Of a stretch of DNA of 62,507 nucleotides, positions 7,879-61,959 are shown piece by piece. Position 1 is the stretch's first letter, and every line of letters starts with the position of its first letter. Made by a program: the position numbers and the translations under genes. A model generated the notes under the pieces. It was not told the DNA's origin. It did no database searches and saw nothing but the letters and a program-made list of their open reading frames with translations. The stretch comes from Actinomycetota bacterium. GTDB taxonomy: Bacteria > Actinomycetota > CADDZG01 > JAHWKV01. Location: NCBI GenBank assembly GCA_040905365.1, contig JBBDRQ010000004.1:1-62507 (forward strand). The letters run 5' to 3'.

Positions 7879-7907
7879 GTCCTAGGAGACCCCCACCAAA
7901 ATTTTCA

Positions 7908-9197
7908 CTACGCCGTGCGGGCGCAGCGGAAGCCGCTGAAGATCTGCCGCCGGACCGGGTGATCCCAATTTCGAAACGTTGCGCGGATGGCCGACGGGTG
8001 GGTTGCCCAGGAGCCTCCCCGCAGGACCTTGTAGTCCTTGCCGTAGAACACGTCCGAGTACTCCCGGTACGGAAACCACACGGTGCCGGGGTAGGGATCG
8101 AAACCGGAGGAGGTCCACTCCCAGATGTCGCCCACCATTTGGTGGCATCCGTACGGACTGACGCCGCCGGGGTACGCGCCGATCTCGGCGGGTCGGAAGT
8201 GCCGCTGCTCCAGGTTCGCCAAACCGGGATGAGGATCCTCGTCGCCCCACGGGTACCTCCTCTTGAGTCCCCCCTTCGAGTCCCACGACGCGGCCTTCTC
8301 CCACTCCGCCTCGGTAGGCAGCCTCTTGCCGGCCCAAGCCGCGTAAGCCTGCGCCTCAAACCAGCACACGTGCTGCACCGGTTCGTTCGCCGGCACAGCT
8401 TCACGTCGACCGAACCGCGTCCGAAGCCACGCGCCGCCGGCGTCGCGGCTCCAAAACTGCGGATGCTCCACCGACTGCTCTTTGCGCCAGGTCCAACCCC
8501 GCTCGCTCCACCAACGGTCGTCGTGGTATCCGCCCGCCTCGATAAACTCTGCGTACTGCGCGTTTGAGACCGGCGCGGTGTCGATCCAGTAGCCGGGCAG
8601 ATCCACGAGGTGCGCGGGGCGCTCGTTGTCGAAAGCCCAGGGTTCGGTATCGGTCCCCATGATGAACTCGCCGGCCGGAACGAGTGCTTCTGGCGCCGGT
8701 ACAGAGCCTCCGGGAGGCGGCGGAGGTCCCGGGCAAGGATACCGACCGTCCCGCAGCTGCAGTGTGGCCAGCATGGTCTCGTCATGTTGCTGCTCGTGCT
8801 GGACCACCATTCCGTACACGTATCCGTCCCTCAAAAGAGGGTTGGCAGGGTCGAACTCAATCTCCTCCAGGATGTCGAGGACGCGACCCCGCACCTCGCC
8901 GATGTAGTTGCGGGACTCCTGTGGGTCCAGCAGCCTCAGCCTCGTGCGGTCCCTGCGGACATGGCGAAACGCATCGTAGACGTCGTCGAGTTGTGGGGCT
9001 TTGGCCGGCAGTCCTGCAACGGTACGCAGCAGCCAGATTTCCTCGTAGTTGCCCACGTGCGCCAGGTCCCACGCTAAGGGCGACATCAGCGGCGAGTGCT
9101 GGGTCATAAGATCGTCCTCCGGAACCGGATCCAACAGATCCAGCGAGCGCCGGCGGGCTCCCTCCAGTTGTCGGGCAGCGTGCTCCTTTAGGTCCAC
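7908..9197 (-). CDS. egtB: Hercynine sulfoxide synthase
   Basis: QHSPLMSPLAWDLAH, HEQQHDETM, FGE-sulfatase domain RLPTEAEWEKAA; GTG start at 9197 overlapping the egtA end is inferred. Confidence 0.95.
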   Translation of the reverse strand: MDLKEHAARQLEGARRRSLDLLDPVPEDDLMTQHSPLMSPLAWDLAHVGNYEEIWLLRTVAGLPAKAPQLDDVYDAFRHVRRDRTRLRLLDPQESRNYIGEVRGRVLDILEEIEFDPANPLLRDGYVYGMVVQHEQQHDETMLATLQLRDGRYPCPGPPPPPGGSVPAPEALVPAGEFIMGTDTEPWAFDNERPAHLVDLPGYWIDTAPVSNAQYAEFIEAGGYHDDRWWSERGWTWRKEQSVEHPQFWSRDAGGAWLRTRFGRREAVPANEPVQHVCWFEAQAYAAWAGKRLPTEAEWEKAASWDSKGGLKRRYPWGDEDPHPGLANLEQRHFRPAEIGAYPGGVSPYGCHQMVGDIWEWTSSGFDPYPGTVWFPYREYSDVFYGKDYKVLRGGSWATHPSAIRATFRNWDHPVRRQIFSGFRCARTA

Positions 9198-10435
9198 GTC
9201 TCCTCCAGGGTCTCGTCCGCAATCAGCACGGGCCGTCCTTGGCTCCACGCATCCAATTGGTCATCGGCCGGAGATCGCTGCGCCACCACGTAGCGTTCGT
9301 TGTAGGCGGCCATAATCCGCGCCGTCTCGTCATCGACGTCCAGGCGGTCGAGGGCCTCCAGAGCCGCCGCAAAACACACCCGAGCCGATTCGGCCAAGAG
9401 GGAGTGGCTCATGCCATGACGGGCAGCGACGGCCCACAGGTCCGCGGTGGGTTCGATCGCCTCCTGCACGCTTCGAGCAGCCTTTTCGTCGTAGACGATC
9501 GCCGAGGCCAAAGCGACCGGTACCCGCCACCAGGGATCGGGCAAAGCATCGATCATCCTCAGCTCGAGCCAGCCCTTGGGCCGGATCGGAGGGAACAGGG
9601 TCGTAAGATGCGCCTCGAGGTCGCTGAGTTCGGGAAACCCCAGCGCATGACCGTCGGCCAGCCACTCGCCAAAACTCATCGGCCGCCGCATCGGTTGGAG
9701 TTCCCCGTTGACGTTGATAAACATCACTCTGGCCTCCAGCGCATACCGCGCCCACACCTGAACCGGATCGCCCACGGGGGACGTGGGCAGGGTTCGGGAA
9801 GGGTCTATCGCCTGCCATATTCCCAGCCGGGTGGACCGCAGACCCGTAGGTCTGCCCCCGGCGATGGCCGAGTTGGCGAACACGGCGCTCAGCGTGGGTC
9901 CCAAGGCGTGGACGAGCCGCCAGCGCTCCGCCCCATCCTCGATGCCGGCTACGTCCAGATTCACGTGGACGGCCGAGGAAGCCCGCATCATCGAACGACC
10001 TGCCGGCCACTCGGAATCGAAATAGGACTCCATGCATCGGTAGCGGGGATGCTGCAGGAGCCGGCGACCGGGTCGATAGGGATCCAGACCGACGCCGTGG
10101 AGCTTGATGCCATGAGCCGACAGCTTTTGTTTAATGAACCGCAGATCGGCAGAGACGGATCTGCAGGTAACGGCTACGGATTGACCCGGAACCGAGCTCA
10201 ACTCAATCTGGCCGCCGGGTTCAAAAGTAACCCCGCTGCCTTGAGGTAACGGCACCGACGGATCGAGCAGGCCTTCCAGCAGCTCCAAGGGCACGTACGT
10301 GTCCGGGTCTTGCTCAAAGATCGGTAGCCACTCGACCTCGACCCCAACCCGGCCCTCTACCGAGGAGGTGAATATAGAAGTGCGAATGTGCTCGTGCACA
10401 TCCGCGACGGACAGGGCTTGTTTTGGGCTGACCAC
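9188..10435 (-). CDS. egtA: Glutamate-cysteine ligase (ergothioneine-associated)
   Basis: VGVEVEW, FEPGGQIELS, HLTTLFPPIRPKGWLELRMID. Confidence 0.92.
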   Translation of the reverse strand: MVSPKQALSVADVHEHIRTSIFTSSVEGRVGVEVEWLPIFEQDPDTYVPLELLEGLLDPSVPLPQGSGVTFEPGGQIELSSVPGQSVAVTCRSVSADLRFIKQKLSAHGIKLHGVGLDPYRPGRRLLQHPRYRCMESYFDSEWPAGRSMMRASSAVHVNLDVAGIEDGAERWRLVHALGPTLSAVFANSAIAGGRPTGLRSTRLGIWQAIDPSRTLPTSPVGDPVQVWARYALEARVMFINVNGELQPMRRPMSFGEWLADGHALGFPELSDLEAHLTTLFPPIRPKGWLELRMIDALPDPWWRVPVALASAIVYDEKAARSVQEAIEPTADLWAVAARHGMSHSLLAESARVCFAAALEALDRLDVDDETARIMAAYNERYVVAQRSPADDQLDAWSQGRPVLIADETLEETWT

Positions 10436-36459: not shown

Positions 36460-37608
36460 CTAGGTGCGCACGGCCACCAAGCAGTGCGACAGGTAAACGT
36501 TCCAGCGGCGCTGCGCAAGTCGCAGCAGCCAAGGCACCATGTCCGCTTCCTCCAGGACCCGAAACTCCTTCCGAAGGGCCGAACGGGTAAAGGCGGGTCC
36601 ACCCCGAGCGAACTCCGAATCACCGTCCGCCCCGGGATCCGCCCAGTAAGGAGTCGCCAGCAAGAGCAAGCCCTCCGGCCCCAGTCCACGGGAAAATTCC
36701 TCGAACAGGCTCATGGGGTCGGCCGCCGCGCACAGCACATTTATGGCTGCCAGACACTGCGCGTGAGCGCCGGCTACCGGCAAACGCGCGCCGTCGGCCA
36801 CAACGAAGTCGAGGTTGTCCCGCTGCGCTGGCCGCTGCAGCGGACGATCGGTAAACGAGCCCTTCTCGGTCTCCAGCTCGTAGCCCTCGAGCGGCAAGGG
36901 GCTGGACAGAAAGTAGCGGCGTGCCGTCAAGACCGCGGTGAAGGACCAGTCAAAGCCTAGGCAGTAGCCATAGTCGCGAGCCAACTCAGCAGCGCCCCAC
37001 CCAATTCCGGCTCCCACCTCGACCGCCAGGAGACCGCCGCCATCCGTCCGGTGGCGGCCGGCCGCATCGAGCAGATACCGGTAGGGGTCGGGGCCCTCTG
37101 TGCCGTAGCGGCCGACCAAACTGCGCCACCATCCCTCGGGCAAGCCGAGCATCATCGACTCCCGGTCGCCGTGCACCTGCAGGTACGGCGAGACGCTCCA
37201 GCCCAGATTCTCCTCGGGCTGCGGCGGCGGTCCGGCGTGTCCTATATGCGCGCTGGCGATTCCCAAATACCCCAGCATCGTTCGGGATATCTGCACGTCC
37301 TGCAGCTGCCGTCCCCACCGCTCGATCTCAGGCCAAAACCCCCATAGATACTGCTGAAGATCGGGTACGAGCAGAGCGACCCCCAAAAGTACCGGGTAGT
37401 CGGCACCACAGCTGCGGCAGCGAAGGATTCCCTCAATGAGCTCGGACCCATCCCCAAGCACCTCCGACGGCTCCGCCTCATCGACGTACAACTCACCGGC
37501 GCACTCGGCCGACGGACACGCGAGCCGGCTCAAGCTCTCTATTTTCACCCGACCACAATAGCCAGTTAAGGCGCCGGAGATCGTTGCGGCAGCGCGCCCG
37601 GCTTCCAT
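36460..37608 (-). CDS. Class I SAM-dependent methyltransferase with N-terminal Trm112-like Zn-ribbon
   Basis: LACP...C, LRCRSC...YPV..GV; VEVGAGIG SAM motif, FVVADG..LP; start may be slightly downstream. Confidence 0.75.
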   Translation of the reverse strand: MEAGRAAATISGALTGYCGRVKIESLSRLACPSAECAGELYVDEAEPSEVLGDGSELIEGILRCRSCGADYPVLLGVALLVPDLQQYLWGFWPEIERWGRQLQDVQISRTMLGYLGIASAHIGHAGPPPQPEENLGWSVSPYLQVHGDRESMMLGLPEGWWRSLVGRYGTEGPDPYRYLLDAAGRHRTDGGGLLAVEVGAGIGWGAAELARDYGYCLGFDWSFTAVLTARRYFLSSPLPLEGYELETEKGSFTDRPLQRPAQRDNLDFVVADGARLPVAGAHAQCLAAINVLCAAADPMSLFEEFSRGLGPEGLLLLATPYWADPGADGDSEFARGGPAFTRSALRKEFRVLEEADMVPWLLRLAQRRWNVYLSHCLVAVRT

Positions 37609-45726: not shown

Positions 45727-46167
45727 ATGAGCTTTGCGGTTGACGCCAACCTGCTCCTCTACGCCTCCGACCTGTCCAGTCCTCGCCAGCCCAAGGCTTA
45801 CGAGCAGTTGCACCGGCTTGCCCGGGGCCCGGAGATTGTCTACCTGTTCTGGCCCGTGCTCATGGCCTATCTGCGTATATCCACCCACTCGTCGATATTT
45901 TCCGCACCCCTGAGCACGGAGGAGGCGATGGATAACGTGAGAGCGCTCGTGGCTCTTCCGCACGTCCGGTGTCCCGGTGAAAACTCGGGCTTTTGGAAGG
46001 TGTATGAACAAATTGGGGCCGGTCAAAATATTCGAGGCAACCTGGTGCCCGACGCACACATCGTGGCGCTGATGATGCAGCACGGAGTTACCGTCATCTG
46101 GACCGACGATCGGGACTTCAGGCGTTTCGAGGGAATTACCGTCCGCTTTTTGGAGGATCTGGACTGA
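45727..46167 (+). CDS. VapC PIN-domain toxin
   Basis: VDANLLLYA, YLRISTH, GNLVPDAHIVAL, TDDRDFRRF. Confidence 0.92.
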   Translation: MSFAVDANLLLYASDLSSPRQPKAYEQLHRLARGPEIVYLFWPVLMAYLRISTHSSIFSAPLSTEEAMDNVRALVALPHVRCPGENSGFWKVYEQIGAGQNIRGNLVPDAHIVALMMQHGVTVIWTDDRDFRRFEGITVRFLEDLD

Positions 46168-46243
46168 GGCTGCGGGCGCGGGCGATGACAGGACACAGTG
46201 GCAATAGGGTTAATAGCGGCCTACCCTGGTGTATTATAGGTGT

Positions 46244-46447
46244 ATGTCACGCACCAACATCGATCTCGACGACCAGGCCTGCCGGGCCGTCATGGAGCGC
46301 TACCACTTTGCGAGCAAGCGGGAGGCGGTCAACTTCGCCCTCCGCACGGTGGCATCGGAGCCGCTCGGCCTCTCCGAGGCCCGCTCACTGCGCGGCTCCG
46401 GCTGGGAAGGGGACCTGGAGATAATGAGGGCCGGCCGCACCGGGTGA
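46244..46447 (+). CDS. VapB antitoxin (resembles mycobacterial VapB11 type)
   Basis: MSRTNIDLDD...KREAVNFALR...GWEGDL; probably leaderless. Confidence 0.88.
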   Translation: MSRTNIDLDDQACRAVMERYHFASKREAVNFALRTVASEPLGLSEARSLRGSGWEGDLEIMRAGRTG

Positions 46448-46833
46448 TTCTTATCGACACCTCGGCCTGGATCGAATTTCTGCGCGACACCGCAAGCCCG
46501 GTGGCCGATAGGGTGGGCGCTGCATTGGACCAGGCCATCGCCGTTTGTGATCCGGTGCGAATGGAGGTCCTGGCAGGCGCCCGGGACGAGAGCCATCTGA
46601 GCGATATGCGCCGGCTGCTCGCCCGGGCATCCACCATTCCGATCGGGCCGGCCGACTACGAGGAGGCCGCCGTTTTGTATCGCATGTGCCGGCGTAAAGG
46701 CGACACGGTGCGCAAGGTCATCGACTGCCTCATCGCAACGGCTGCCATCAAATCCTCGGCCGCAGTACTGCACCTCGATGCCGACTTCGACATCCTGGCG
46801 AGGCATACGCCTCTGCGCACCGTTGAGCTTTGA
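46444..46833 (+). CDS. VapC PIN-domain toxin (VapC11 type)
   Basis: ILIDTSAWIEFLR, MEVLAGAR, DCLIA, LHLDADFD; GTGA overlap with vapB. Confidence 0.92.
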   Translation: MILIDTSAWIEFLRDTASPVADRVGAALDQAIAVCDPVRMEVLAGARDESHLSDMRRLLARASTIPIGPADYEEAAVLYRMCRRKGDTVRKVIDCLIATAAIKSSAAVLHLDADFDILARHTPLRTVEL

Positions 46834-46971
46834 GAGCCGCTGGGCCACGATGATTCCTGGGGTCTAACCGCTGGTGGTGGTGTGACACTGATCTGGCCCG
46901 GAAGGTGAACCTTGAGGCGGCTGGGGGGCTCGGGAAACTCGGTGCCATCGGGTAGATCGCAGATGAACAGC

Positions 46972-47189
46972 GAGGGGATGCGGTAACCCCGGTAGCGGTA
47001 GCGGGTTATCGCGACCTCGGCGGGCCAGGCGAGCCTCGCGCCGTTGACGCCGTCCCATGTGCGTTGCCAGTACCGCCGCTTGATCTGTTTCCAGGTCAGA
47101 CGCGGATACTTCTTGCGCAGCCAGCGTACGACTCGCCACCACAGGTAGTGGCTGAGGTAGGCGAAGCAGCGCTTGCTCGCGCCGTGGCG
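46972..47189 (-). pseudogene. Group II intron RT/maturase C-terminal (domain X) fragment
   Basis: Manual translation RHGASKRCFAYLSHYLWWRVVRWLRKKYPRLTWKQIKRRY...ITRYRYRGYRIP; no RT core present. Confidence 0.75.
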
Positions 47190-47269
47190 TTTTCTCGGGC
47201 GAGAGCGTCAAACGCATCTGCTCGCGCATGAACTCGGCCGTTTGCTCTTTGAGCGCCCGAATCCCCAGC

Positions 47270-47443
47270 GCGGACAATCAGTGGCGGTCGTTCCAGCGCC
47301 AGCGCGAGAAGTCAACTGCAACCTTCTTCGTCGGCCTTTCTCGTGCAAAGCAGCGCACGATCTTCACGTACTGTGTGTCGCGCGGCGACCGTGACTCGGT
47401 TGATGCGCTCTACCGCCTGCTGGCGACGCCCGGTTCCAAATGA
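47270..47443 (+). pseudogene. C-terminal fragment of a UvrD/SF1 helicase
   Basis: FFVGLSRAKQR resembles SF1 motif VI; no upstream helicase body. Confidence 0.5.
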
Positions 47444-47500
47444 AGGATCGCCCGGACCTCCCAGGGCGAGAGCGACCTACGACATCCGACCGGCCACTGC

Positions 47501-48358
47501 CTACTTGCCGCCCATTCGCGCAAGGAACTCCTCGACGGTCGCCACGGCCTGGCGGCGAAGCCGCGCGGTAGCCTCGTCATCGCCGACCTCTGCGAGAAAC
47601 GAGGCGTAGCCGATTGGCCCGTCCTGAGCGACGTCGGCAAACCGCTCCCGTAGGAGAGTCAGCGCCTCGGCAACCTGCTCTCGGCGGGCGATTGGGCTCT
47701 TGACGGCTTCGGTCGCGGCTTCATCAGGCCCGGCACCGAAGTGCAGCAAGCAGAAGATCAGATCGTACGCGTCCTTGTTTTCGTGGCGATCCTGGAAGGC
47801 GAAGATCTTAAGCACAGTGCAGGAGAACAAATTGGCCACCCTCACCTTCACCCGAGACATGCCACCGTCATCGAGTCGTTCAGCTTCGATCTCGCGCTCG
47901 AGATAGTCCTGTGTGACCAGCTGCGCACCTCGAACGTTGAAGGCACCTAGTCCGCTGCCAGCTCCCTCACCCTTGGGCTTGAAGATGTGGCCGGGGTTGA
48001 CCCGATTGGTCTCGCAGAGGAATTCAACCTGGACCTTCACGCCGTCGACATCTCTTTTCCACCGGAAGCTGTTCTCAGCCCTGAATTGCGCCTTCTTGAG
48101 GTTGTTCTCCAGGGTTCGGTAGGTCTCGGGCGCGGCATCACCCAGAACCAGTCCGATGACGACGTCGATGTCGGTCGTCCCCACGTGGGCTCGGGCCCCC
48201 TCAGGCAGCTCACCTACGATGTAGCGCGGCGCCAAACCGCCGGCCAGGTAGATCCTCTCACTCCATGGGCCGATCTCGCCGAGGAGCGTTACCAGCGCAC
48301 GTTCGCACCGAGCCGTGGTCACCTCGTCGTACTCGGAGTAGTGCTCTCGAGGACTCAA
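47501..48358 (-). CDS. Nucleotidyltransferase toxin, AbiEii/MenT-like (type IV TA)
   Basis: LAGGLAP...GTTDIDV (pol-beta G..DxD), K..AF.DR...KDAYDL. Confidence 0.75.
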   Translation of the reverse strand: MSPREHYSEYDEVTTARCERALVTLLGEIGPWSERIYLAGGLAPRYIVGELPEGARAHVGTTDIDVVIGLVLGDAAPETYRTLENNLKKAQFRAENSFRWKRDVDGVKVQVEFLCETNRVNPGHIFKPKGEGAGSGLGAFNVRGAQLVTQDYLEREIEAERLDDGGMSRVKVRVANLFSCTVLKIFAFQDRHENKDAYDLIFCLLHFGAGPDEAATEAVKSPIARREQVAEALTLLRERFADVAQDGPIGYASFLAEVGDDEATARLRRQAVATVEEFLARMGGK

Positions 48359-49410
48359 AATCCGATCACCTCTCGACGCAGGTTGTCGGCCTGCTCGCGG
48401 CCTCGTCGGGGATCGCGGCGCAGGTCTACGTACGTGCGAAAGAGGTTGGCGAGCGACAATCCACCGCGCTTCTCACGGAAGGCGAGCGGACCGTCGTCCC
48501 TGACCTGAAGGAACACGACGTTGTGGCCATCTGTGACCAAGTCTGCTCGCGTCGCTTGCGCCAGCTCGTGCACTCCGACTCTTGCAGTCACCCAGACCTC
48601 GACGACGGGAACCGCCGTCACGAACGGCGCCACCAAGGTTGCGGCCGCGGCCCCGGTGACCGCGTAATTGATGCCGGCGCGCCCGAGGTTATTGGCAACC
48701 TTTTCGGCAAGCAGCCGTGGCGTTTGCGCCAGCACGTACGCGGTTGTTCTGGTCGGCTGCTCCGTGTTCTCTTCCGTCCAAAGGTCGAGCAGCGCGCCGG
48801 GGTCCGTAAGAGTCCGAGTGAGGTTCGGTCCTGTCCCCTGCGCCGCAACCACACCCTCGTGCTCAAGTCGAGCCAGAACGCGATGCGCGAGCCCAGTAGA
48901 CACACCTGCCTCCTCGACAACATCTTTCACTTGCCACCTGCGCTCGGGATGCAGCAGCAGAGCCTGAGTCACCACGCCGGCTTTCCCCTTGAGGCGAGTG
49001 GGTGGGGTAGTGGTATAAGTCCGCCGCTTTCGGCGTTCATGGCCTTCGACGTGAAAGAGAAGCCCCGGCAACTCCAAGTGCGCGTTCCCGAGCCCATCAA
49101 TGATCCCGATGCCATGGTCCTCCAAAATCCGGCGGGTCTCCTCTGTGGTCTCCTCTGCAATGAGTAGGTGGCGCCTCTCAGGGTGCGCCTCGGCGTAATG
49201 AACGAGCTGCCAGGCAGTGGCGGCGTTCGCCCGCCGCTTGAAATCCACAACGACCTCTTCCTGGCGGTCGGCGAAGGTCAGGATGGCGTCGACCCCCCGG
49301 TCGGTGCCGCCAGAGTCGGCGTCCACGGTCAGCCACGGGATCTCCCGTAGGATGCGGAGCGCCTCCGTCTCCAGCGAGCCCCTAATATTCACAAGCTCAC
49401 GCTTATTCAC
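48355..49410 (-). CDS. AbiEi-like antitoxin / wHTH regulator (type IV TA)
   Basis: Central wHTH (AGVSTGLAHRVL..L), LLDLW, YAVTG..AA, C-terminal YVDL..DPRRGREQA; 4-nt overlap with the toxin gene. Confidence 0.75.
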   Translation of the reverse strand: MNKRELVNIRGSLETEALRILREIPWLTVDADSGGTDRGVDAILTFADRQEEVVVDFKRRANAATAWQLVHYAEAHPERRHLLIAEETTEETRRILEDHGIGIIDGLGNAHLELPGLLFHVEGHERRKRRTYTTTPPTRLKGKAGVVTQALLLHPERRWQVKDVVEEAGVSTGLAHRVLARLEHEGVVAAQGTGPNLTRTLTDPGALLDLWTEENTEQPTRTTAYVLAQTPRLLAEKVANNLGRAGINYAVTGAAAATLVAPFVTAVPVVEVWVTARVGVHELAQATRADLVTDGHNVVFLQVRDDGPLAFREKRGGLSLANLFRTYVDLRRDPRRGREQADNLRREVIGF

Positions 49411-49440
49411 AGCGTCTATGAATATAGACGATTCTGTGAA
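49406..49440. promoter_or_regulatory. Nested inverted repeat at the antitoxin start (putative autoregulatory operator)
   Basis: ttcacag-cgtctat-gaat-atagacg-att-ctgtgaa. Confidence 0.6.
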
Positions 49441-49660
49441 CCTTATCTAGTTCACTTGGCAAGTCCTGAGTCACCCTCTCAGGAGTCGACAACGCCGCCG
49501 CCGGCGGCGTCCACCGCCCTGCGGGCGACTGACCCGAGACTCACGGGGGGCATGACGGCATGCACGACTGGGCCGACACCCCCGGACCACCACGGCGTTC
49601 TGATCACACACCGGCCGCCGAGAGCGACTGGGTTCTGGACACAGCGGCAAGACGAGACCG

Positions 49661-49840
49661 GCCGTTGGTGTTCTCGTTGCTGCCGCGCTGCCAGGGACTG
49701 TTGGGATCACAGAAGTACACGGCCACCCCGGTGTCGATGGTGGACAGGGCGTGGCGGGCCATCTCCTTGCCCTGGTCCCAGATCAGCGATTGGCTCAGCT
49801 GCTCAGGCAGCCGGAGGATGTGGTCACGTAGCGCGGCAGC
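49661..49840 (-). mobile_element. IS30 family transposase fragment
   Basis: SLIWDQGKEMARH...VYFCDPNSPWQRGSNENTNG. Confidence 0.9.
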
Positions 49841-50187
49841 GGCGGGCTCCGCGGGCCTGTCCCTTTCCCATCCTGCGAGAATCTTTGCCGCCGCGGAATG
49901 CCCACCGTACTTACCGGGTTTATCCAGGAGATTCACCCCACAACGGCTTCGAACCAGTCACCAATACGAAGTCGGTAGGCAGACCGGCCATGGATTGTTG
50001 CGCCGGGTCGGCTCCACCGGCTAGAAGGGGGGGAGGTTCCGCGATGGTCCGTCAACCGCCGCCTGTCTGGTCGAACAATCAGGGCCGGACCGGTCCAGCC
50101 AGCGTCGACGCATCCATTACCCGCCGGGCAGTAGCTCCCGGGCTCCTTGCACATGCTGCGGCGTCCACGGGCAGGGGGCTGCGCCAT

Positions 50188-50571
50188 ATGCGCTATCTGG
50201 TAGAGCTGTCAGTACTTCTGGTAATCGTGCGGGTGCGCCTGAGCCGGCGGGGATTCCAGCCAACCGTGGCTTGGTCCACGACGTTGAACCCAGCGCGCCA
50301 CTGCCATGAGGCTGGGGTGCACAGGACCATTGAGCTGGCGATGACAGATGCTCAGCGGGTGTTCCGCTGGCATCCCGTGGCCAACAAGTGCCTCGAGCAG
50401 TCCCTGGTCCTCTGCAAGTTTCTCGCCCGGCGCGGAATCAGGGCCGAGTTGATTGTCGCAGTGCGGAAGTACCCGTTCGGGTCCCATGCGTGGGCTCGCT
50501 GGGGTGAGGTGCTCTTGACCGACCCTCCCGCCCAGGATCCCGAGCATTTCCACGTGATCGCACGATTCTAG
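50188..50571 (+). CDS. Lasso peptide leader peptidase (B2, transglutaminase-like)
   Basis: KCLEQSL, PFGSHAW, LTD catalytic Cys-His-Asp; ATG 50188 lies within ORF 49456-50571. Confidence 0.9.
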   Translation: MRYLVELSVLLVIVRVRLSRRGFQPTVAWSTTLNPARHCHEAGVHRTIELAMTDAQRVFRWHPVANKCLEQSLVLCKFLARRGIRAELIVAVRKYPFGSHAWARWGEVLLTDPPAQDPEHFHVIARF

Positions 50572-50580
50572 GAGGCACAC

Positions 50581-52602
50581 GTGAGTGGAATCGCCGTCGT
50601 CTACAACCGTGTCGATCCTTCTATCGATCTGGCCTTGCTCGAACGGGTCGTCAAGGACCTTGCCTGGCGAGGTCCTGACCAGGCAGGCACGTGGCACGAT
50701 GACCACGTCGGACTCGGCGCGACGCAACTCTGGACGACCACCGAGGACTGGGGTTCCCGGCAGCCGGTCGTCGGCCACGACGCCAGGAGTGTCCTGGCCT
50801 TCGACGGGCGGTTGGACAACCGGCCGGAACTGCAGGCGGAGCTCGGTCTGGCTGCTGGTGGGAAGGAGACACCCAGCGACGCGGATCTGGCGCTTGCGGC
50901 GTATGGCCGATGGCGCGAGTCATTCCCACAACAACTGATGGGACCATTCTCGGTCGCCGTTTGGGACCGTGCGCAGCACCGGCTGGTCTGCGCCCGCGAT
51001 CCCATCGGCCAAAGACCCTTCTACTACCACATGAGCCGGGGGTGCTTCTACGCGGCCTCGACCATCGAGGCGCTCCGGAGGGTTCCCGGGGTCAGTGCCA
51101 CCTTGAACAACGACTACATCTGGGACTTTCTGTGCACCGGTGGGATGGCCGGCTCGCTCGACCCGGAAGAGACACCGTTCACGGATGTCCGCCGCCTGCC
51201 GCCCGGCCACACGCTGGTGGTCACGCGGAACGGACTGCGACTCGAGCGTTACTGGGAGCCCTGGAGCCTCCCGCCGCTGCGCTACCGTGACGATCGAGAG
51301 TATGCCGAGCACTTCCGCGAACTCTTCACCGAGGTGGTGCGTGCGCACAGCCGGGCCGCCGGACCTGTCTGCGCCACCCTGTCCGGCGGTCTGGACTCCT
51401 CTTCGATCGTATGCGTGATCCGCCAACTGGAGCGGTCAGGCCGGCTCACCGGCGAGCCGCTTCAGACGTTGACGCTGGCTTGGGAGGATGCCGCAGGGTA
51501 CAGAGCGGGCTATGACGAGCGCCAGTACGTCGACGAGGTGGTCGCCCAGTACCCGGGACCAGCGCACTACCTCCGCGAGCAGCGCCTCGACACCTTCGAC
51601 GCCTCTGCCGACACGACCCCTCCCCGCGACGAGCCGTTCAGTCTGGTGGGCCCCCTTTGGTCCGCACTCGCCGACAAGACCCACGCGCTGGGCAGCCGGG
51701 TGCTGGTTGCCGGCAGCGGCGGCGACCACCTGCTGACCGGCAACCGCTTCGCCATCACCGACCTGTTGAGGCGGGGCGCGCTCGGGGAGCTGGCCGAGCA
51801 ACTGCGCGATCTGGCCCACCGGCAGGGCCTGCCGTACCCGGCGCTGGTCGCCGGCTACCTGATCTCTCCCCACCTCCCCCGCCATCTCGGCGCCGCGCTG
51901 CTGGCAGCGCTGACCAAAGACACCGACCGCAGGCGCATCGACTCCTTGTACTACTGGCGGGTCCCCGACTGGGTGCAGGACCGCTCCAGCCACAAGCAGC
52001 GTGGCCGTCAGCGCCACAAGCTGCTGCGTCGCCAGTTCTCTTCCCTGGCTGCGCAGAAGGACTACGAGCAGCTCGGCGTCGGCTCGCAGGACCACCGGCT
52101 CGTGTCCCTGCCGAACGTGGCGCTCGCAAGCGGAGTCGACCTGCGCAACCCGTTCTTCGACACTCGACTCGTCAACTACTGTCTCCGCCTCCCCGCCGAC
52201 CTCAAGTACCGCGACGGGATCACAAAGGTCGCGCTGCGACTGGCGCTGCAGGACATCCTGCCCCCGCAGATCGCCAACCGTCGCGGCAAGACTGCATACA
52301 CGTTCGCTGCAACCGATTACGTCAAGCGCAACTGGGCATCCATCCAGGACACCTACCGGCAGTCGGAGGCGCAGCGGCGGGGCTACGTGAACGCGTCCCT
52401 CCTTCTGGACGAGATCGCACAGCTCCAGCAGGGCGGCAGCGGCGCACTCGACCTGCCCTCGCTACTAGCCGCAATCGGTCTCGAGGACTGGCTGCGACGA
52501 GTCGAGCGCTCACCCGTCCGCGAGACGTGCGGTCAGCACTCCACGGTCATCAACACCGATCGTGACCCTACGAGCATGAAAGGAGGTGACAACCGTGCCT
52601 AA
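50581..52602 (+). CDS. Lasso peptide cyclase (C, asparagine synthetase-like)
   Basis: MSGI (Ntn Cys replaced by Ser), RGPD, RLDNR, ARDPIG.RP, LSGGLDSS, GSGGD; GGAGG RBS; flanked by B2, precursors and RRE. Confidence 0.92.
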   Translation: MSGIAVVYNRVDPSIDLALLERVVKDLAWRGPDQAGTWHDDHVGLGATQLWTTTEDWGSRQPVVGHDARSVLAFDGRLDNRPELQAELGLAAGGKETPSDADLALAAYGRWRESFPQQLMGPFSVAVWDRAQHRLVCARDPIGQRPFYYHMSRGCFYAASTIEALRRVPGVSATLNNDYIWDFLCTGGMAGSLDPEETPFTDVRRLPPGHTLVVTRNGLRLERYWEPWSLPPLRYRDDREYAEHFRELFTEVVRAHSRAAGPVCATLSGGLDSSSIVCVIRQLERSGRLTGEPLQTLTLAWEDAAGYRAGYDERQYVDEVVAQYPGPAHYLREQRLDTFDASADTTPPRDEPFSLVGPLWSALADKTHALGSRVLVAGSGGDHLLTGNRFAITDLLRRGALGELAEQLRDLAHRQGLPYPALVAGYLISPHLPRHLGAALLAALTKDTDRRRIDSLYYWRVPDWVQDRSSHKQRGRQRHKLLRRQFSSLAAQKDYEQLGVGSQDHRLVSLPNVALASGVDLRNPFFDTRLVNYCLRLPADLKYRDGITKVALRLALQDILPPQIANRRGKTAYTFAATDYVKRNWASIQDTYRQSEAQRRGYVNASLLLDEIAQLQQGGSGALDLPSLLAAIGLEDWLRRVERSPVRETCGQHSTVINTDRDPTSMKGGDNRA

Positions 52603-52768
52603 CCCATCACTGTCCTCATCCGGCACCGCCCGGAAGCCATACCACGGCGTGACTCTCGTGCGATTCGGCAATGCGGCCCGTATCACGCTCGGCTGCGATT
52701 GCGGCGAGGACATCGATTGCGACTGTAATTTCCGCAACGACGACGACGGATCGGATGGCCTCGGCTAA
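52595..52768 (+). CDS. Lasso peptide precursor A1 (57 aa; core GCDCGEDIDCDCNFRNDDDGSDGLG)
   Basis: AGGAGG RBS, GTG 52595; leader Y-17, L-12, G-8, T-2; core Gly1, Asp9. Confidence 0.88.
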   Translation: MPNPSLSSSGTARKPYHGVTLVRFGNAARITLGCDCGEDIDCDCNFRNDDDGSDGLG

Positions 52769-52802: not shown

Positions 52803-52858
52803 TAGCCCACGGCAGGGTCACGGGAGCGCTTGTGAATACATTCATCAGTGCTCCCGTG
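52803..52858 (+). promoter_or_regulatory. Conserved box plus hairpin after precursor A1
   Basis: tagcccacggcagggt, then stem cacgggagcgct / agtgctcccgtg. Confidence 0.7.
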
Positions 52859-52901
52859 CACCCAGCCATTGACCCTATATACACGAAAGGCGGTGAAACG
52901 G

Positions 52902-53078
52902 ATGAATGATTCCACAGATGCCTTGGTCGACGCTGCCAAGCGTCCGTATCACGGCACGACGCTGGCGAGGTTCGGCGACGCTGTACAGGTCACGCTGGGT
53001 TGCACTACCGGCGACACCCTGGACGCTGACCCCCAGGGGGTCCAGTGGCACGACGACAACGGGGACGGCTTGTACTGA
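52902..53078 (+). CDS. Lasso peptide precursor A2 (58 aa; core GCTTGDTLDADPQGVQWHDDNGDGLY)
   Basis: GAAAGG RBS; leader PYHGTTLARFGDAVQVTL paralogous to A1; core Gly1, Asp9. Confidence 0.88.
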   Translation: MNDSTDALVDAAKRPYHGTTLARFGDAVQVTLGCTTGDTLDADPQGVQWHDDNGDGLY

Positions 53079-53112: not shown

Positions 53113-53167
53113 TAGCCCACGGCAGGGTAGCGGGAGCCCTTTTTAGTGTATTGCATAGCGCTCCCGC
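53113..53167 (+). promoter_or_regulatory. Conserved box plus hairpin after precursor A2
   Basis: Same 16-mer tagcccacggcagggt, then stem gcgggagc / gctcccgc. Confidence 0.7.
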
Positions 53168-53198
53168 GGCCCGGTGCGGCCCGGTCGGAAGGAATTGC

Positions 53199-53468
53199 AT
53201 GTCATCAACGATGTACAACACAAGCGAACAGGTATTCATAACCGAATTCGACGGTGAAGCAGTGCTCTTCCACCTCGTCTCTGGTGCGTACTACGGCTTG
53301 GACGAGGTGGGCACCGACGTGTGGCGCATGCTGGATGAGCGCAAGCCGGTCGAGGAGATCGTGCGCGCTCTGCTCGGGCGCTACGACGTCAACGAGTCCC
53401 GGTTGCGTTCGGATGTGCACCGGCTGCTTGCTGACCTCCACCAGGAAAACCTGGTCGAGACGACCTGA
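53199..53468 (+). CDS. RiPP recognition element (PqqD family, lasso B1)
   Basis: 89 aa; DGEAVLF...G.YYGLDEVG..VW.ML...YDV...L..DV..LL..L...LV. Confidence 0.92.
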   Translation: MSSTMYNTSEQVFITEFDGEAVLFHLVSGAYYGLDEVGTDVWRMLDERKPVEEIVRALLGRYDVNESRLRSDVHRLLADLHQENLVETT

Positions 53469-53476
53469 GCGATCAG

Positions 53477-54475
53477 ATGCCCAGCTCGCAAGCGACGCTC
53501 CGGCGCACCGTCGCGCAGCTCGAGGGTCGCCGGTTGACCTACGCCGTGGCGACGGTCGTGGCAATAGGTGAAGCGGCCGCGATGCTGACCTTCCCCTTGG
53601 TGCAACAGTCGTTCTACGATCGGGTCCTCATCGGCGGCGAGACCGAGATCCTGGCGCCTGTATTGCTGGCGATGCTCGCCCTCGTGGTGACGATGCTTGC
53701 AGCGAAGGCGGTCTCTGGGTACCTGTACGCGTCGGTCGGCGAGGCTGTCAAGGTCGACGTCCGGTCACAGCTGACGCAGGCAGAGCTCTCACGGTCGTTG
53801 ACCGCCGGGGACCGGGAGGCGACCGGGGAGCTGGTGTCGGTGGCCACCAACGACGTCGCCAAGATGGGCGAGCTGTATCGCCGAGTCTTTGGACCCGGAG
53901 TAGTCCAGGTGCTGAGGCTCGTCGGCACACTCGCAGTGCTCGCCGTCATCGACCCGCGGCTGCTGGTCGTCGCGCTCCCTCTGCTGGCGCTCTATGCGGC
54001 CGTGCCGATCGGGGTGACGCCAGGACTGCGACGGACAGGGGAGATGGTCCAGCAACGAACGGGCCAGCTCATCACGACCCTGCAGGAGGGGTTCTCGGGC
54101 ACTCGGGACATCAAAGCGTTCGGGCGGGTGGGCTGGGGGGTGGCACGCCAACGTACGTCCGGCGACGCGCTGCGGGAGGCGCAGCTTCGCCTGACCCGCT
54201 TGGAGCTGCTTTCTTCGGGGAGCTTCATCGCCTACTGGCTGAGCGTGGTAGGCATCAGCTGGTACGGAGCCCTGGCGGTCTCGGAGAACCGGCTGACCGT
54301 AGGGGGACTCCTCGCGCTCCTGTTGTACTTCGGTCAACTGCAACAACCGGTGAGTTTCCTCGTGAAGCTGAACAACCGCTTGCAGGTCGGCCTCGCCGCT
54401 TCTGCGCGGGTGTTCGCACACCTCGACCAGCCGCCCGCCGCACACACAGCAGCCGGTGGCCGCCCCCCCCGGTAA
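53477..54475 (+). CDS. ABC exporter transmembrane domain (lasso D, N-terminal half)
   Basis: Six-TM ABC_membrane pattern, TGELVS...ND, EGFSG.RDIKAFG, LTVGGL; ends at TAA in a G/C tract. Confidence 0.85.
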   Translation: MPSSQATLRRTVAQLEGRRLTYAVATVVAIGEAAAMLTFPLVQQSFYDRVLIGGETEILAPVLLAMLALVVTMLAAKAVSGYLYASVGEAVKVDVRSQLTQAELSRSLTAGDREATGELVSVATNDVAKMGELYRRVFGPGVVQVLRLVGTLAVLAVIDPRLLVVALPLLALYAAVPIGVTPGLRRTGEMVQQRTGQLITTLQEGFSGTRDIKAFGRVGWGVARQRTSGDALREAQLRLTRLELLSSGSFIAYWLSVVGISWYGALAVSENRLTVGGLLALLLYFGQLQQPVSFLVKLNNRLQVGLAASARVFAHLDQPPAAHTAAGGRPPR

Positions 54476-54511: not shown

Positions 54512-55351
54512 GTGGCAGTGCAAGACCTGTCCTTTTGCTACCCTGGCAACAGCGCCTGCCTGCAGAACGTGTGCTTGCGCGCGAGCGCCGGGGAGTTCGT
54601 CGCGATCGTCGGCGAGACAGGCTCGGGCAAGACCACGCTGCTCAACGCTATCCTCGGCTTCGTCGACACCGACCAGGGACATGTGCTGATCGACGGCCAC
54701 GAGCTGGCCGACCTGAGCGACGACGACCTACGCCGGCAGGTCTCGGTGAGCTCGTCAGACGCGGTCCTGTTCGACATGACCATCGCCGATAACATCCGCT
54801 TCGGCAACCTCGACGCCTCCGACGACGAGGTCCGGTCCGCCGCCCATGCCAGCGCCGCCGACGAGTTCATCGAATCCCTACCGGAGGGCTACCAGACCAA
54901 AATCGGCGAACGCGGTGGACGCCTGTCCACCGGCCAACGCCAGCGCATCGCCTTGGCCCGCGCGCTCATCCGCCAGCTCTCGATCCTTCTACTAGACGAA
55001 GCCACCGCCGGCCTGGACGGACCCACGGAGCGGTTGGTCATGGACCGCCTCCTAAGCCGGCCGGACCGCCCGACTATCGTGATGGTCACCCATCGCCTGT
55101 ACACACTCAAGCAGGCCGATCGGATCTACGTCCTGGAGGACGGCCGCATCACCGAGCAGGGAAACCACCACACATTGCTCCAACAGGGTGGCCTGTACCA
55201 TCGGCTCTGCCGGAACCAAGGATTCGCCTCGGACCCGCCCCCAGCTCCTGGCCAATCGCGGCGAGCCCCGTTGAGCCTGCCTGGGCAGGAGCGACAACAG
55301 CGTCTCCACCCCGGAGACGAGGGTATCGGTGGCGTCCCGTCCTCGGTATAA
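54512..55351 (+). CDS. ABC exporter ATPase domain (lasso D, C-terminal half)
   Basis: GETGSGKTT, LSTGQRQR, LLDEATAGLD, VTHRL; same frame as the TMD. Confidence 0.88.
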   Translation: MAVQDLSFCYPGNSACLQNVCLRASAGEFVAIVGETGSGKTTLLNAILGFVDTDQGHVLIDGHELADLSDDDLRRQVSVSSSDAVLFDMTIADNIRFGNLDASDDEVRSAAHASAADEFIESLPEGYQTKIGERGGRLSTGQRQRIALARALIRQLSILLLDEATAGLDGPTERLVMDRLLSRPDRPTIVMVTHRLYTLKQADRIYVLEDGRITEQGNHHTLLQQGGLYHRLCRNQGFASDPPPAPGQSRRAPLSLPGQERQQRLHPGDEGIGGVPSSV

Positions 55352-55523: not shown

Positions 55524-55743
55524 AGCTCCAGATCGACCGAATCCGGGATCACGCCTCGGAGCACAGCTTCAACCCGGCTTCTCAGGTCCGACGAAACAAC
55601 CCCTCATACCTCACACAATGTTTATATCTAACATTTACGTGAGGTATAGCTTACTCATGAGGTATCACCTTTTTGCTCCCTTTCGAGCACCGCGTCGACC
55701 AAGAACTGGGTGAAACTGGCCCGAAATATGCCTAATTTCATCG

Positions 55744-55815
55744 TGGGCGCTACTGGGATCGAACCAGTGACCCCTGCCTTGTAAGGGCAGTGCTCTCCCG
55801 CTGAGCTAAGCGCCC
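55744..55815 (-). tRNA. tRNA-Val (anticodon TAC), CCA not encoded
   Basis: gggcgct acceptor stem, tagctcagcgggagagc D arm, ctgcc-cTTACaa-ggcag anticodon arm, ggttcgatcc T arm. Confidence 0.96.
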
Positions 55816-59981: not shown

Positions 59982-60796
59982 GTAAGACCCAGCACTGTTG
60001 CAGCGATACCCCCGGCCGCTATGCAGTACACGGCAAAACCGATCAGACCCCGTCGCTGCAGGAATGCGACCATTCCCGCTATCGATAAGTAACTTGAGAT
60101 TCCGGCGGATACAAAGCCGGCCGCCAATGCCCCCGCGCCTACTGAATCGCCGGACAGTTGCGGTACCTGGAAGACCGCGGTACCGATAAGTATGGGAATG
60201 GCCATCAGGAACGAGAATCTAGCTGCCTGGGCGCGGGAAAGCCCGGCCAGCATTGCTGCCGATATGGTCGAGCCGGATCGTGAGATTCCCGGCAGAATCG
60301 CAGCCGCCTGGGCCAGTCCCACACCCAGCGCAGCACGCCACGAAACCTGCTCTGTTAACCCCTTCACCCCGGTGAGAACCTCCTTACGATCAGAAGCATC
60401 TTTACGTCGGGTGAGGGCTTCGGCCCCTATGAGAATTACACCGGTGCCTATCAGCTGGATCGCAACCTGGTACGGGTTGCCGAAAACCTGCTCGAACCAC
60501 TCCTCGAAGACCACGCCGATCACCGCAGCCGGCAGCGTGGCCAGCGCCAGCAGCCACACAAACCGGCGTTGTGGACCGGACCGCACCATCCCGAACGCGG
60601 TCTCGATCAGCTCCCGCCGAAAGTAGACCACCAGCGCAAGCAGGGTGGCAGCGTGCAGAAGTACGAAAAAAGGCAGGCTGGGCTGATCCCAGCCGGCAAA
60701 CTCAGGGACCAGGACCAGGTGACCGGAGGAGGAGATCGGAAGAAACTCAGTCAGTCCTTGAACGATCCCTAGGACAATCGCTTCAAAAATGCTCAA
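59978..60796 (-). CDS. uppP: Undecaprenyl-diphosphatase (BacA)
   Basis: GIVQGLTEFLPISSSGHL, PGISRSGSTI, AARFSFL. Confidence 0.96.
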   Translation of the reverse strand: MSIFEAIVLGIVQGLTEFLPISSSGHLVLVPEFAGWDQPSLPFFVLLHAATLLALVVYFRRELIETAFGMVRSGPQRRFVWLLALATLPAAVIGVVFEEWFEQVFGNPYQVAIQLIGTGVILIGAEALTRRKDASDRKEVLTGVKGLTEQVSWRAALGVGLAQAAAILPGISRSGSTISAAMLAGLSRAQAARFSFLMAIPILIGTAVFQVPQLSGDSVGAGALAAGFVSAGISSYLSIAGMVAFLQRRGLIGFAVYCIAAGGIAATVLGLT

Positions 60797-60906
60797 TTAG
60801 TACCCTATCGGTTAACCGGCCCTCGAGGGGGACTTCACCAAGACGCCCCCCTAGATCCGCAGAGTCCGGACAACAGTGGCAGATACTGCCCGCTGAGGAG
60901 GTGCGC

Positions 60907-61959
60907 TTGGCCGTATCTGTCACCAAGACCTACGAGGGTCACCGGCTGGTTGGTGAGGGGCCAATAACCGATTTGGCCAACTCCTACCTTGCCCATTTGA
61001 CTGCCCGCGGCTTCTCCGCGGCAACGGTCAGAGGATACGCCTTCGACCTGCTGAACTTCAGTCGATTCCTGCATGGTAGGGACATCGACCCGGGTAATGT
61101 AGCTCCCAGCGACCTGTTCGATTGGCTTCAGTGGCAGTCCGAGATGCCTGCCCACCCCAACGACAACAACGTCGTCAGCATTCAAGCCAACCGAGGCGCC
61201 TCGCCGGCCACTATGAACCGGCGCGTGGCGGCGGTCAGGGGCCTGTTCGAGTACAGCGTGATCACCGGATTCAGAGACGACAACCCGGTTCCACCTGGAC
61301 GAAGAGCTACCGGACTGCGGGCTCGCCCCCGCGGCACGCTGGGTCACCTCGACACCGGCAAGACCCGCTCCGGGGGCCGTCTGGTCAAGCAGCATCAGCG
61401 CCTTCCCGAGAGCATCGATCTCGCCGATGTCGCAGACTTCGTCGCGGATCTTGCAACCTATCGCGACCGGGCGATGGCTCTGGCGATGGTGCTGGGCGGT
61501 CTGCGGGCCGCCGAAGTGCGTGCCCTCCGGCTCGCTGACGTGGACATGGGGCTGCGCCGTTTACGGGTGACCGGCAAAGGCGGACGGCAACGGGTGGTCC
61601 CGGTGGACCGGCCCTTCTTCGCTGAGCTGGCCGGCTACCTGCACTCCGAGCGCCCCAGCGGCCTTGCGACACCGGAGTGCTTTGTGGTGCTTCGAGGACC
61701 AACCAGGGGCCAGGCAATGACCGAGGCCGGGATGCGCAAGATCTTTCGGGTTCACCGGCAGCGCTCAGGTGCTACCCGAGTCCGTCCCCACCGCCTGCGC
61801 CACACCTACGGGACCGAGCTGGCCGCCGCCGGCATCGATCTGCTGGTGCTCAAGGACCTGATGGGCCACGCCCATTCCGAGACCACGGCAATGTACGTCC
61901 ATCTGTCCCCTGAGCATCTCGCGGCCGAGTACGCCCGGGCCCATGAGGCCTTGCAATGA
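60907..61959 (+). CDS. Tyrosine recombinase/integrase
   Basis: SAM-like N-terminal domain, GLRAAEV, GKGG, HRLRHT, LMGH, Y; GAGGAGG RBS before TTG 60907. Confidence 0.93.
   Translation: MAVSVTKTYEGHRLVGEGPITDLANSYLAHLTARGFSAATVRGYAFDLLNFSRFLHGRDIDPGNVAPSDLFDWLQWQSEMPAHPNDNNVVSIQANRGASPATMNRRVAAVRGLFEYSVITGFRDDNPVPPGRRATGLRARPRGTLGHLDTGKTRSGGRLVKQHQRLPESIDLADVADFVADLATYRDRAMALAMVLGGLRAAEVRALRLADVDMGLRRLRVTGKGGRQRVVPVDRPFFAELAGYLHSERPSGLATPECFVVLRGPTRGQAMTEAGMRKIFRVHRQRSGATRVRPHRLRHTYGTELAAAGIDLLVLKDLMGHAHSETTAMYVHLSPEHLAAEYARAHEALQ

Follow-up and report, generated by a model that had tools for sequence, protein, structure and literature searches.

Acidic Asp/Gly tails of two predicted lasso-peptide precursors and their resemblance to calcium-binding motifs

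Lasso peptides close their ring on an Asp or Glu residue at core positions 7-9 (PMC9266682). The short motif Dx[DN]xDG is described as a Ca2+-binding motif that includes the loops of EF-hands (Rigden et al. 2011, PMC3123361). In the calcium-dependent lipopeptide antibiotics, the sequence Asp-X-Asp-Gly is reported to be essential for Ca2+ binding and lies inside a mostly 10-residue macrocycle of products that are non-ribosomal, lipidated and contain D-amino acids (PMC8905900). Among RiPPs, peptides that are made on the ribosome and modified after translation, a 2024 preprint calls the cysimiditides the first class with an obligate metal ion. Here we analyse two tandem precursor genes, A1 and A2, of a predicted lasso-peptide gene cluster in a 62,507-nucleotide stretch of DNA from an Actinomycetota bacterium (GenBank assembly GCA_040905365.1, contig JBBDRQ010000004.1; the whole stretch is hereafter called the window). 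The cores of both precursors end in acidic Asp/Gly tails, and an earlier note on the window had proposed that they might be Ca2+- or lanthanide-binding, or calcium-dependent, lasso peptides.

Rigden et al. (PMC3123361) set out what such a site consists of. In Dx[DN]xDG, the metal is liganded by residues 1, 3 and 5 through their side chains and by the carbonyl of the next residue past the motif, joined in all 16 structural contexts by a further acidic (or amide) side chain that always comes later in the sequence. EF-hands add a ligand at position 9, an acidic residue (usually Glu) at position 12, Gly at position 6, Ile, Leu or Val at position 8, and the helix-loop-helix fold. The motif is reported to have evolved convergently in at least 16 unrelated contexts, with generally acidic stretches and (Dx)3 regularity as frequent sources, and is said not to occur in disordered regions. 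Both precedents invoked in the earlier note, the calcium loop and the lipopeptide motif, are in print (PMC3123361 and PMC8905900, respectively).

Compared with these systems, the tails of A1 and A2 do not appear to form a canonical calcium site of either the EF-hand or the daptomycin type. On balance, we lean towards viewing the tail as a polyanionic, lineage-specific element of recognition or solubility, with the motif match following from composition.

The Asp/Gly tails and the calcium-loop motif

The A2 core of 26 residues and its TGA stop codon occupy positions 52998-53078, at the end of a 58-codon open reading frame (ORF) on the forward strand (52902-53078), and the core ends in W17-H18-D19-D20-N21-G22-D23-G24-L25-Y26. 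The A1 core, of 25 residues, lies at 52691-52765 and ends in F14-R15-N16-D17-D18-D19-G20-S21-D22-G23-L24-G25; both cores start after a leader Thr(-2)-Leu(-1). Codons and pattern searches agree that Dx[DN]xDG is exact in A2 only, at D19-G24 (53052-53069, forward strand), directly after the W-H pair. In the A1 tail, D17-D18-D19-G20-S21-D22-G23 (52739-52759, forward strand), the extra Ser21 shifts the register, leaving DxDG at D17-G20 and no Dx[DN]xDG. The earlier note, which had placed a Dx[DN]xDG-like motif in both cores and located it at 52998-53078, was thus right about the exact match in A2 and about A1 as a near variant containing DxDG, and its coordinates fit the A2 core with its stop codon; the full motif is missing from A1, whose core lies outside that segment. 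The two sequence patterns that it described as shared are also recovered, GCxxG[ED]xxDxD in the alignment of A1 and A2, and DDxG(x)DGL once a one-residue gap is set by eye at Ser21. Its description of the tails as acidic is borne out: 9 of the 25 residues of the A1 core and 6 of the 26 in A2 are acidic, for net charges of -8 and -6.

To estimate the chance level of the motif, each core was shuffled 200,000 times. Dx[DN]xDG turns up in 4.3% of the shuffles with the composition of A2 and in 13.9% of those with the composition of A1; by arithmetic from these rates, one core or the other would show it in about 18% of cases. The shorter DxDG turns up in 38% (A1) and 21% (A2). Six-frame translation of the window yields 2 matches to Dx[DN]xDG in 125,010 residues, the second of which comes from a frame that runs antisense to the A1 leader. 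By these frequencies, the order of residues in the tails is not significant given the composition, and the unusual feature is the extreme acidic composition itself. On the preferred reading, the exact match in A2 simply follows from the abundance of Asp and Gly and from (Dx)n regularity.

Measured against the published definitions, A2 has the residues of loop positions 1, 3 and 5 (D19, N21 and D23), Gly24 at position 6 and a residue at position 7. The peptide then ends at loop position 8; only L25 and Y26 come after the motif. Because A2 ends two residues past the motif, it has no later acidic side-chain ligand. The EF-hand positions 9 and 12 are missing as well, and position 8 is Tyr26 instead of Ile, Leu or Val. 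In A1, the departure from the EF-hand loop comes at position 5, with Ser21 putting the residues out of register. In A2, the C-terminal carboxylate might take the place of the missing ligand. In Pfam searches of the precursors and cores at E<=10, no EF-hand or other calcium-binding family was found, although the filters of HMMER drop many weak matches; the matches to NTS_2, DUF5974 and Endothelin (E 0.02-0.25) were dismissed as chance level. A sequence search of the PDB with both cores at E<=10 gave 0 matches.

Relatives of the precursors are few. When about 5.8 billion proteins were searched by word index with the alignment of A1 and A2, just the two proteins of the window came back. HMMER, run in full over 1.84 billion cluster representatives, gave 5 matches, namely these two, P0003, P0004 and P0005. 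P0003, an 845-residue protein of repeat units in which the core was matched six times, was rejected as a chance match to the repeat. The outside relatives are two short metagenomic proteins, P0004 (49 residues) and P0005 (45 residues), and a second word-index search with the four-sequence alignment produced 67 candidates and no new members. The family thus appears to be very rare, with four members in about 5.8 billion proteins. In the four-way alignment, the leader residues Y, G, T, L, R, F, G, A and T-L and the core residues G1, C2, G5, D9 and D11 are invariant; D11 has no obvious role.

The tails of P0004 and P0005 each have two acidic residues at the end and a net charge of -4, and contain no Dx[DN]xDG, no DxDG and no Asp-Gly or Asn-Gly (D/N-Gly) pair. 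Exact Dx[DN]xDG is therefore found in one of the four family members (A2), and DxDG in one (A1). The conservation among homologous precursors that the earlier note had named as a check on its proposal was not found: 0 of 2 outside relatives carry Dx[DN]xDG, a count that covers P0004 and P0005 and leaves aside the precursors beside the cyclases P0007-P0013. The tail thus seems to be kept between the paralogues and not across the family.

Those cyclases are metagenomic relatives of the cyclase of this locus, at 68% (P0007), 58% (P0008), 53% (P0009) and 41-46% (P0010-P0013) identity. They belong to a small, graded clade (P0007-P0022; 34-68% identity, 394-1027 bits), while the bulk of lasso cyclases score near 300 bits. 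P0007 is listed on a contig of length 8092, equal to that of the contig with precursor P0004. More members of the precursor family probably exist beside such enzymes, their precursor genes uncalled. A cyclase search of genome contigs found 8 loci at only 25-34% identity; the candidate precursors that a leader-motif scan picked out at 5 of these 8 loci were unlike the A1/A2 family, with no acidic Asp/Gly tail, and were set aside. No precursor family of NCBIfam matched A1 or A2, and a tblastn search of plasmids with A2 gave a single chance match (E 0.9) inside a LamG-domain gene. In the ESM Atlas, the best scores (0.87) belong to unnamed clusters, and the nearest named clusters are Subterisin, DUF5974 and DUF5972 (0.79-0.80); we treat both as leads only.

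Several observations weigh against a purely compositional account of the motif. The tails align as D-D-x-G-(S)-D-G-L, with 6 of 8 aligned positions identical when the gap at Ser21 is set by eye, and 3 of the 6 identical residues use different synonymous codons (GGA/GGG, GAT/GAC and CTC/TTG); over the ring and loop, 5 of 13 positions are identical. This identity suggests selection on the tail in this organism, beyond compositional accident, although tail conservation depends on gap placement, since an automatic alignment gives just 5 of 12 identical positions over plug plus tail. Such selection would be compatible with cation binding or with any specific recognition, for example, by a target or by the exporter. 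Moreover, the A2 match is exact, including Gly at position 6; the missing ligand could be replaced by the C-terminal carboxylate or by those of the ring; and with net charges of -6 to -8, a degree of cation dependence is plausible on physical grounds. With two outside relatives, the sample of the family is also tiny, while cyclase relatives at 41-68% identity exist.

These are, for the most part, also the arguments for the proposal that the tail, alone or with ring and C-terminal carboxylates, is a specific Ca2+ or lanthanide site, which would make A1 and A2 metal-binding or calcium-dependent lasso peptides. To them can be added the residue available for the position-7 carbonyl in A2, the DxDG of A1, the repeated convergent origin of the motif, often in acidic regions (PMC3123361), and the requirement for Asp-X-Asp-Gly in the lipopeptides (PMC8905900). 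Yet A1 is out of register, both outside relatives lack the motif, the loop stops at position 8 without a later acidic side chain, no family model matches, and shuffles yield the motif in 4-14% of cases. Furthermore, the motif would lie in a free tail, that is, neither in an ordered loop nor inside a macrocycle as in the lipopeptides. We regard a site of this kind as unlikely. A composite site built from the tail, carboxylates of ring and loop (D3, E6, D7 and D11 in A1; D6 and D11 in A2) and the C-terminal carboxylate seems, if anything, slightly less probable still, and for specific, functionally relevant binding of Ca2+ or lanthanides by the tails in general, the chances appear similarly low. 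The calcium proposal of the earlier note is thus left weakened, not refuted: only A2 matches, 0 of 2 relatives do, the later acidic ligand is absent and no calcium-binding family of Pfam is matched, so that a canonical Ca2+ site in the tails is not supported by the sequences. The Dx[DN]xDG of A2 is weak evidence, unfit as grounds for annotating A1 or A2 as calcium-binding.

Proposed maturation, cysteines and tail chemistry

The features shared by the four precursors suggest how the peptides might mature. B1 would bind the conserved leader pattern Y..G.TL.RFG.A...TL, B2 would cleave after Thr(-2)-Leu(-1), and the cyclase would join Gly1 to Asp9, producing a 9-residue ring. We consider the Gly1-Asp9 ring the best assignment because D9 is the sole acceptor at positions 7-9 common to all four members. 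The steric plug would be a bulky pair that is aligned, or nearly so, in 4 of 4 members: F14-R15 in A1, W17-H18 in A2, where the loop is three residues longer, and W-R and Y-Y in the relatives. A plug at this pair would make the Asp/Gly stretch a free C-terminal tail below the ring, comprising ten residues in A1 (N16-G25) and eight in A2 (D19-Y26). The tail would most likely serve as an exposed surface for recognition or solubility, and would attract divalent cations electrostatically and weakly. We infer the position of the ring, the plug, the threading, and the exposure and function of the tail from the sequences of the four members.

The cysteines of the cores raise the possibility of a different location for a metal. 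Cys residues are at positions 2, 4, 10 and 12 in A1 and P0005 and at 2, 4, 6 and 16 in P0004, whereas Cys2 is the only cysteine of the A2 core. The combination of Gly1 and Cys2 matches none of the lasso classes I-IV as these are defined in PMC9266682; in particular, class I is characterized by two disulfides, one of them through a Cys at core position 1, which is Gly here. The pattern may point to a new disulfide topology or to a thiolate metal site. On such a reading, the ring and loop, rich in Cys and Asp (CxC...CxC in A1 and P0005), would hold a soft or borderline metal such as Zn, Cu or Fe, or else form two disulfides, and the tail would be an accessory. The invariance of C2, D9 and D11 in all four members is in line with such a site, and a RiPP with a Zn-tetracysteine site has been reported (cysimiditides, 2024 preprint). 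However, A2, with Cys2 alone, would be left unexplained, and so would the tail that it shares with A1; the cysteines form disulfides in the known Cys-bearing lasso classes, as described in PMC9266682; and the cluster contains no metal-related gene. We consider a metal site in the ring and loop quite improbable.

The D/N-Gly pairs, of which each of the two tails has two, have a chemistry of their own. Asp-Gly pairs are prone to rearrangement via a succinimide. Asn-Gly likewise rearranges through a succinimide, to Asp or isoAsp within hours to days (PMC11659308). The Asn21-Gly22 pair of A2 and the Asp-Gly pairs are expected to isomerise spontaneously, and the mature tails may be chemically heterogeneous unless they are structured. 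If Asn21 were deamidated to alpha-Asp, the Dx[DN]xDG motif would survive, whereas conversion to isoAsp would distort it; distortion of the loop by isomerisation of Asn-Gly or Asp-Gly would be one more difficulty for a calcium site.

It is also conceivable that conversion to aspartimide or isoaspartate, be it timed, part of maturation or a form of chemical ageing, is what the D/N-Gly pairs are for, rather than metal binding. The presence of these pairs in both tails and their absence from the two relatives would agree with this, as would the speed of Asn-Gly rearrangement (PMC11659308) and the occurrence of aspartimide as a known lasso-peptide modification (PMC9266682 and a preprint). Against it, the known cases described in PMC9266682 need a dedicated methyltransferase encoded in the cluster. 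No methyltransferase gene adjoins the cluster here, the nearest Pfam methyltransferase match being at 36460-37608, about 13 kb away. Spontaneous isomerisation, for its part, needs no selection and would leave the conservation of the tail unexplained. We find this reading very unlikely.

Cluster, paralogues and genomic setting

The locus is a complete lasso-peptide gene cluster with two tandem duplicate precursor genes, in the order B2, C, A1, A2, B1 and ATP-binding cassette (ABC) exporter. The order B2-C-A-A-B1-D is unusual compared with the usual orders of lasso clusters. The claim in the earlier note that A1 and A2 are lasso-peptide precursors agrees well with the cyclase, B2, PqqD-type B1 and ABC exporter that flank them, as well as with the presence of Thr at -2, Gly1 and Asp9. 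All genes discussed in this and the next two paragraphs are on the forward strand. B2, a transglutaminase-like leader peptidase (50188-50571), matches Pfam Transglut_core3 (4.9e-18) and NCBIfam lasso_biosyn_B2 (2.4e-19), the latter with 70 bits, above the 33-bit cut-off. It likely starts at ATG 50188; in the long ORF 49456-50571, of 371 residues, the B2 domain is confined to the final ~120 residues. C (50581-52602), the predicted cyclase that would close the lasso macrolactam by an isopeptide bond, contains Pfam Asn_synthase (5.7e-45) and GATase_7/6 domains, and its top NCBIfam model is lass_lactam_cya (4.7e-114), with 382 bits, under the curated cut-off of 525 bits. B1, the PqqD-type leader-recognition protein (RiPP recognition element, RRE; 53199-53468), matches Pfam PqqD (3.5e-20) with 72.5 bits, above the 23.4-bit cut-off; its top NCBIfam matches are two lasso PqqD chaperones (7.4e-18 and 5.2e-13), both under their own cut-offs.

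Precursor A1 has 57 residues when read from GTG 52595 (52595-52768), the same start as in database protein P0001. It is also listed from the in-frame GTG 52586. GTG 52595 seems the better start because GGAGG at 52582-52586 ends 8 nt before it. Precursor A2 (58 residues, 52902-53078; leader 52902-52997) begins about 130 nt downstream of its paralogue and is identical to database protein P0002. Domain scans of the neighbouring genes found no tailoring enzyme, metal-related gene or thiol oxidoreductase adjoining the cluster, and within it domain scans found no genes for lipidation or nonribosomal peptide synthetases.

The exporter is split in two. Its transmembrane half (53477-54475; Pfam ABC_membrane, 1.7e-29) and its ATPase half (54512-55351; Pfam ABC_tran, 1.5e-31; NCBIfam matches to the C-terminal halves of MsbA-type exporters, 3.1e-79) are divided by a TAA at 54473-54475, in frame with the ATPase half, and a 12-codon spacer. 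The stop is in a Pro/Gly/Arg linker rich in homopolymer runs of C and G, and no Shine-Dalgarno sequence was seen before GTG 54512, where the ATPase half starts. A nonsense mutation, a genuine split or a mistake of the assembly could each account for the TAA.

This interruption gives rise to a further explanation, namely that the cluster is decaying or silent and the tails are without current function. The in-frame TAA, the lack of a Shine-Dalgarno sequence before the downstream GTG, and a setting of toxin-antitoxin genes with an adjoining tRNA gene and an integrase gene 5 kb off could all be taken in that sense. Nevertheless, the genes of the cluster other than the split exporter are intact and have normal third-position GC content, the exporter is not required for synthesis, and the stop, located as it is in a homopolymer-rich linker, may reflect a natural split or a fault in the assembly. 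The precursors, too, bear marks of constraint. Between A1 and A2, nonsynonymous and synonymous divergence (dN and dS) are 0.29 and 1.96 in the conserved part of the leader (19 codons; tiny counts) and 0.76 and 0.79 in the core (25 codons; tiny counts). The leaders are thus under purifying selection, which argues against decay, and the ratio in the core is as expected of a variable mature peptide. We give decay only a small chance.

The duplication of A1 and A2 is old, with a dS of about 2 over the conserved part of the leader. Downstream of each gene, a 16-nt word is followed by a GC-rich hairpin, at 52803-52863 after A1 and at 53113-53172 after A2 (forward strand; bounds approximate). Both copies were recognized by the exact 16-mer, the DNA alignment and the fold, and the exact 16-mer has only 2 copies in the window. 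The hairpin after A1 has a folding energy of -49.1 kcal/mol (z = -5.96 against shuffles). The one after A2 is present in both the minimum free energy and the centroid structures, while the whole 123-nt stretch has z = 0.09, no gain over shuffles. The ribosome-binding site, gene and 3' hairpin underwent duplication together, as one unit. The hairpins may stabilise the transcript or attenuate transcription, setting the ratio of precursor to enzymes; Rfam has no family for them and, over the whole window, detects tRNA only.

The setting of the cluster is island-like. Its neighbours are toxin-antitoxin genes, genes of DUF309 and DUF5671, and a tRNA-Val gene. The toxin-antitoxin genes, which consist of two PIN-domain genes and an AbiEii-like gene with a helix-turn-helix (HTH) partner, are at 45727-49410 on one side, and tRNA-Val is at 55743-55815 on the other, with a tyrosine integrase gene (60571-61959) 5 kb beyond the tRNA. 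About 780 bp (49411-50187) separate the HTH gene from the start of B2; a minus-strand ORF of 110 residues within this gap (49604-49936) has gene-like third-position GC content and no Pfam family. Elsewhere in the window, three adjacent genes (6098-9248) encode a histidine-specific methyltransferase, a class-II amidotransferase and a protein with DinB_2 and FGE-sulfatase domains. Together these are the domains of ergothioneine synthesis, and we take the three proteins to be EgtD, EgtC and EgtB, respectively.

Comparison with known systems

Among the papers that the literature searches listed, judged by titles and the openings of abstracts, no calcium- or metal-binding lasso peptide was found; in the metanodin paper, the word calcium is confined to the references. 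Specific binding of calcium or lanthanides by the tails, were it to occur, would add metal dependence to the repertoire of lasso peptides and provide a very small, heat-stable, genetically encoded metal-binding scaffold. With a composite site, A1 or A2 would be the first metal-dependent lasso peptide, and a cation could switch the shape or activity of an interlocked peptide, much as Ca2+ arms daptomycin. The locus is still a useful lead if the tails bind no metal, with its four-member family, a Gly1/Cys2 pattern outside classes I-IV and a very negative charge.

Among described loops with Dx[DN]xDG, including those of EF-hands, A2 has the six-residue motif exactly and in an acidic region. It differs from EF-hand loops in being without the ligands of positions 9 and 12 and without flanking secondary-structure elements, and A1 does not match. 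With calcium-dependent lipopeptides such as daptomycin, laspartomycin and friulimicin, A1 has in common that it is an anionic peptide with Asp-X-Asp-Gly (D17-G20). Unlike them, A1 is ribosomal, and its motif belongs to the linear tail, eight residues beyond Asp9 and outside the proposed Gly1-Asp9 ring. The cysimiditides resemble A1 in being ribosomal and in having four cysteines and reactive Asp residues; as the preprint describes them, they differ in containing two CXXCXGXG motifs, needing a methyltransferase and having no lasso machinery. The aspartimidylated lasso peptides cellulonodin-2 and lihuanodin convert an Asp into a succinimide, at Asp6-Thr7 in the ring and with a methyltransferase from the cluster (PMC9266682), whereas A1 and A2 carry their D/N-Gly pairs in the tail and have no gene for such an enzyme next to them.

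The closest counterparts are the Cys-bearing lasso peptides with 9-residue rings, siamycin and sviceucin of class I and BI-32169 and 9401-LP1 of class III. Their machinery is alike, with split B1 and B2, an Asn-synthetase-like cyclase and an ABC exporter, and so are the closure of the ring on an Asp within positions 7-9 and the location of cysteines in the ring (PMC9266682). Class I peptides have Cys at core position 1 (PMC9266682), unlike A1 and A2, which have Gly1 and cysteines at 2, 4, 10 and 12 or at 2 only, and no curated precursor model matches either of them. The locus represents a known kind, a lasso-peptide cluster, with unusual features, namely a precursor family that no curated model covers, the Gly1/Cys2 pattern, the charge and an Asp/Gly tail conserved between paralogues. 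The net charges of the two cores, -8 in A1 and -6 in A2, seem unusually negative for a lasso peptide; to our knowledge, none described so far falls in the range of -6 to -8.

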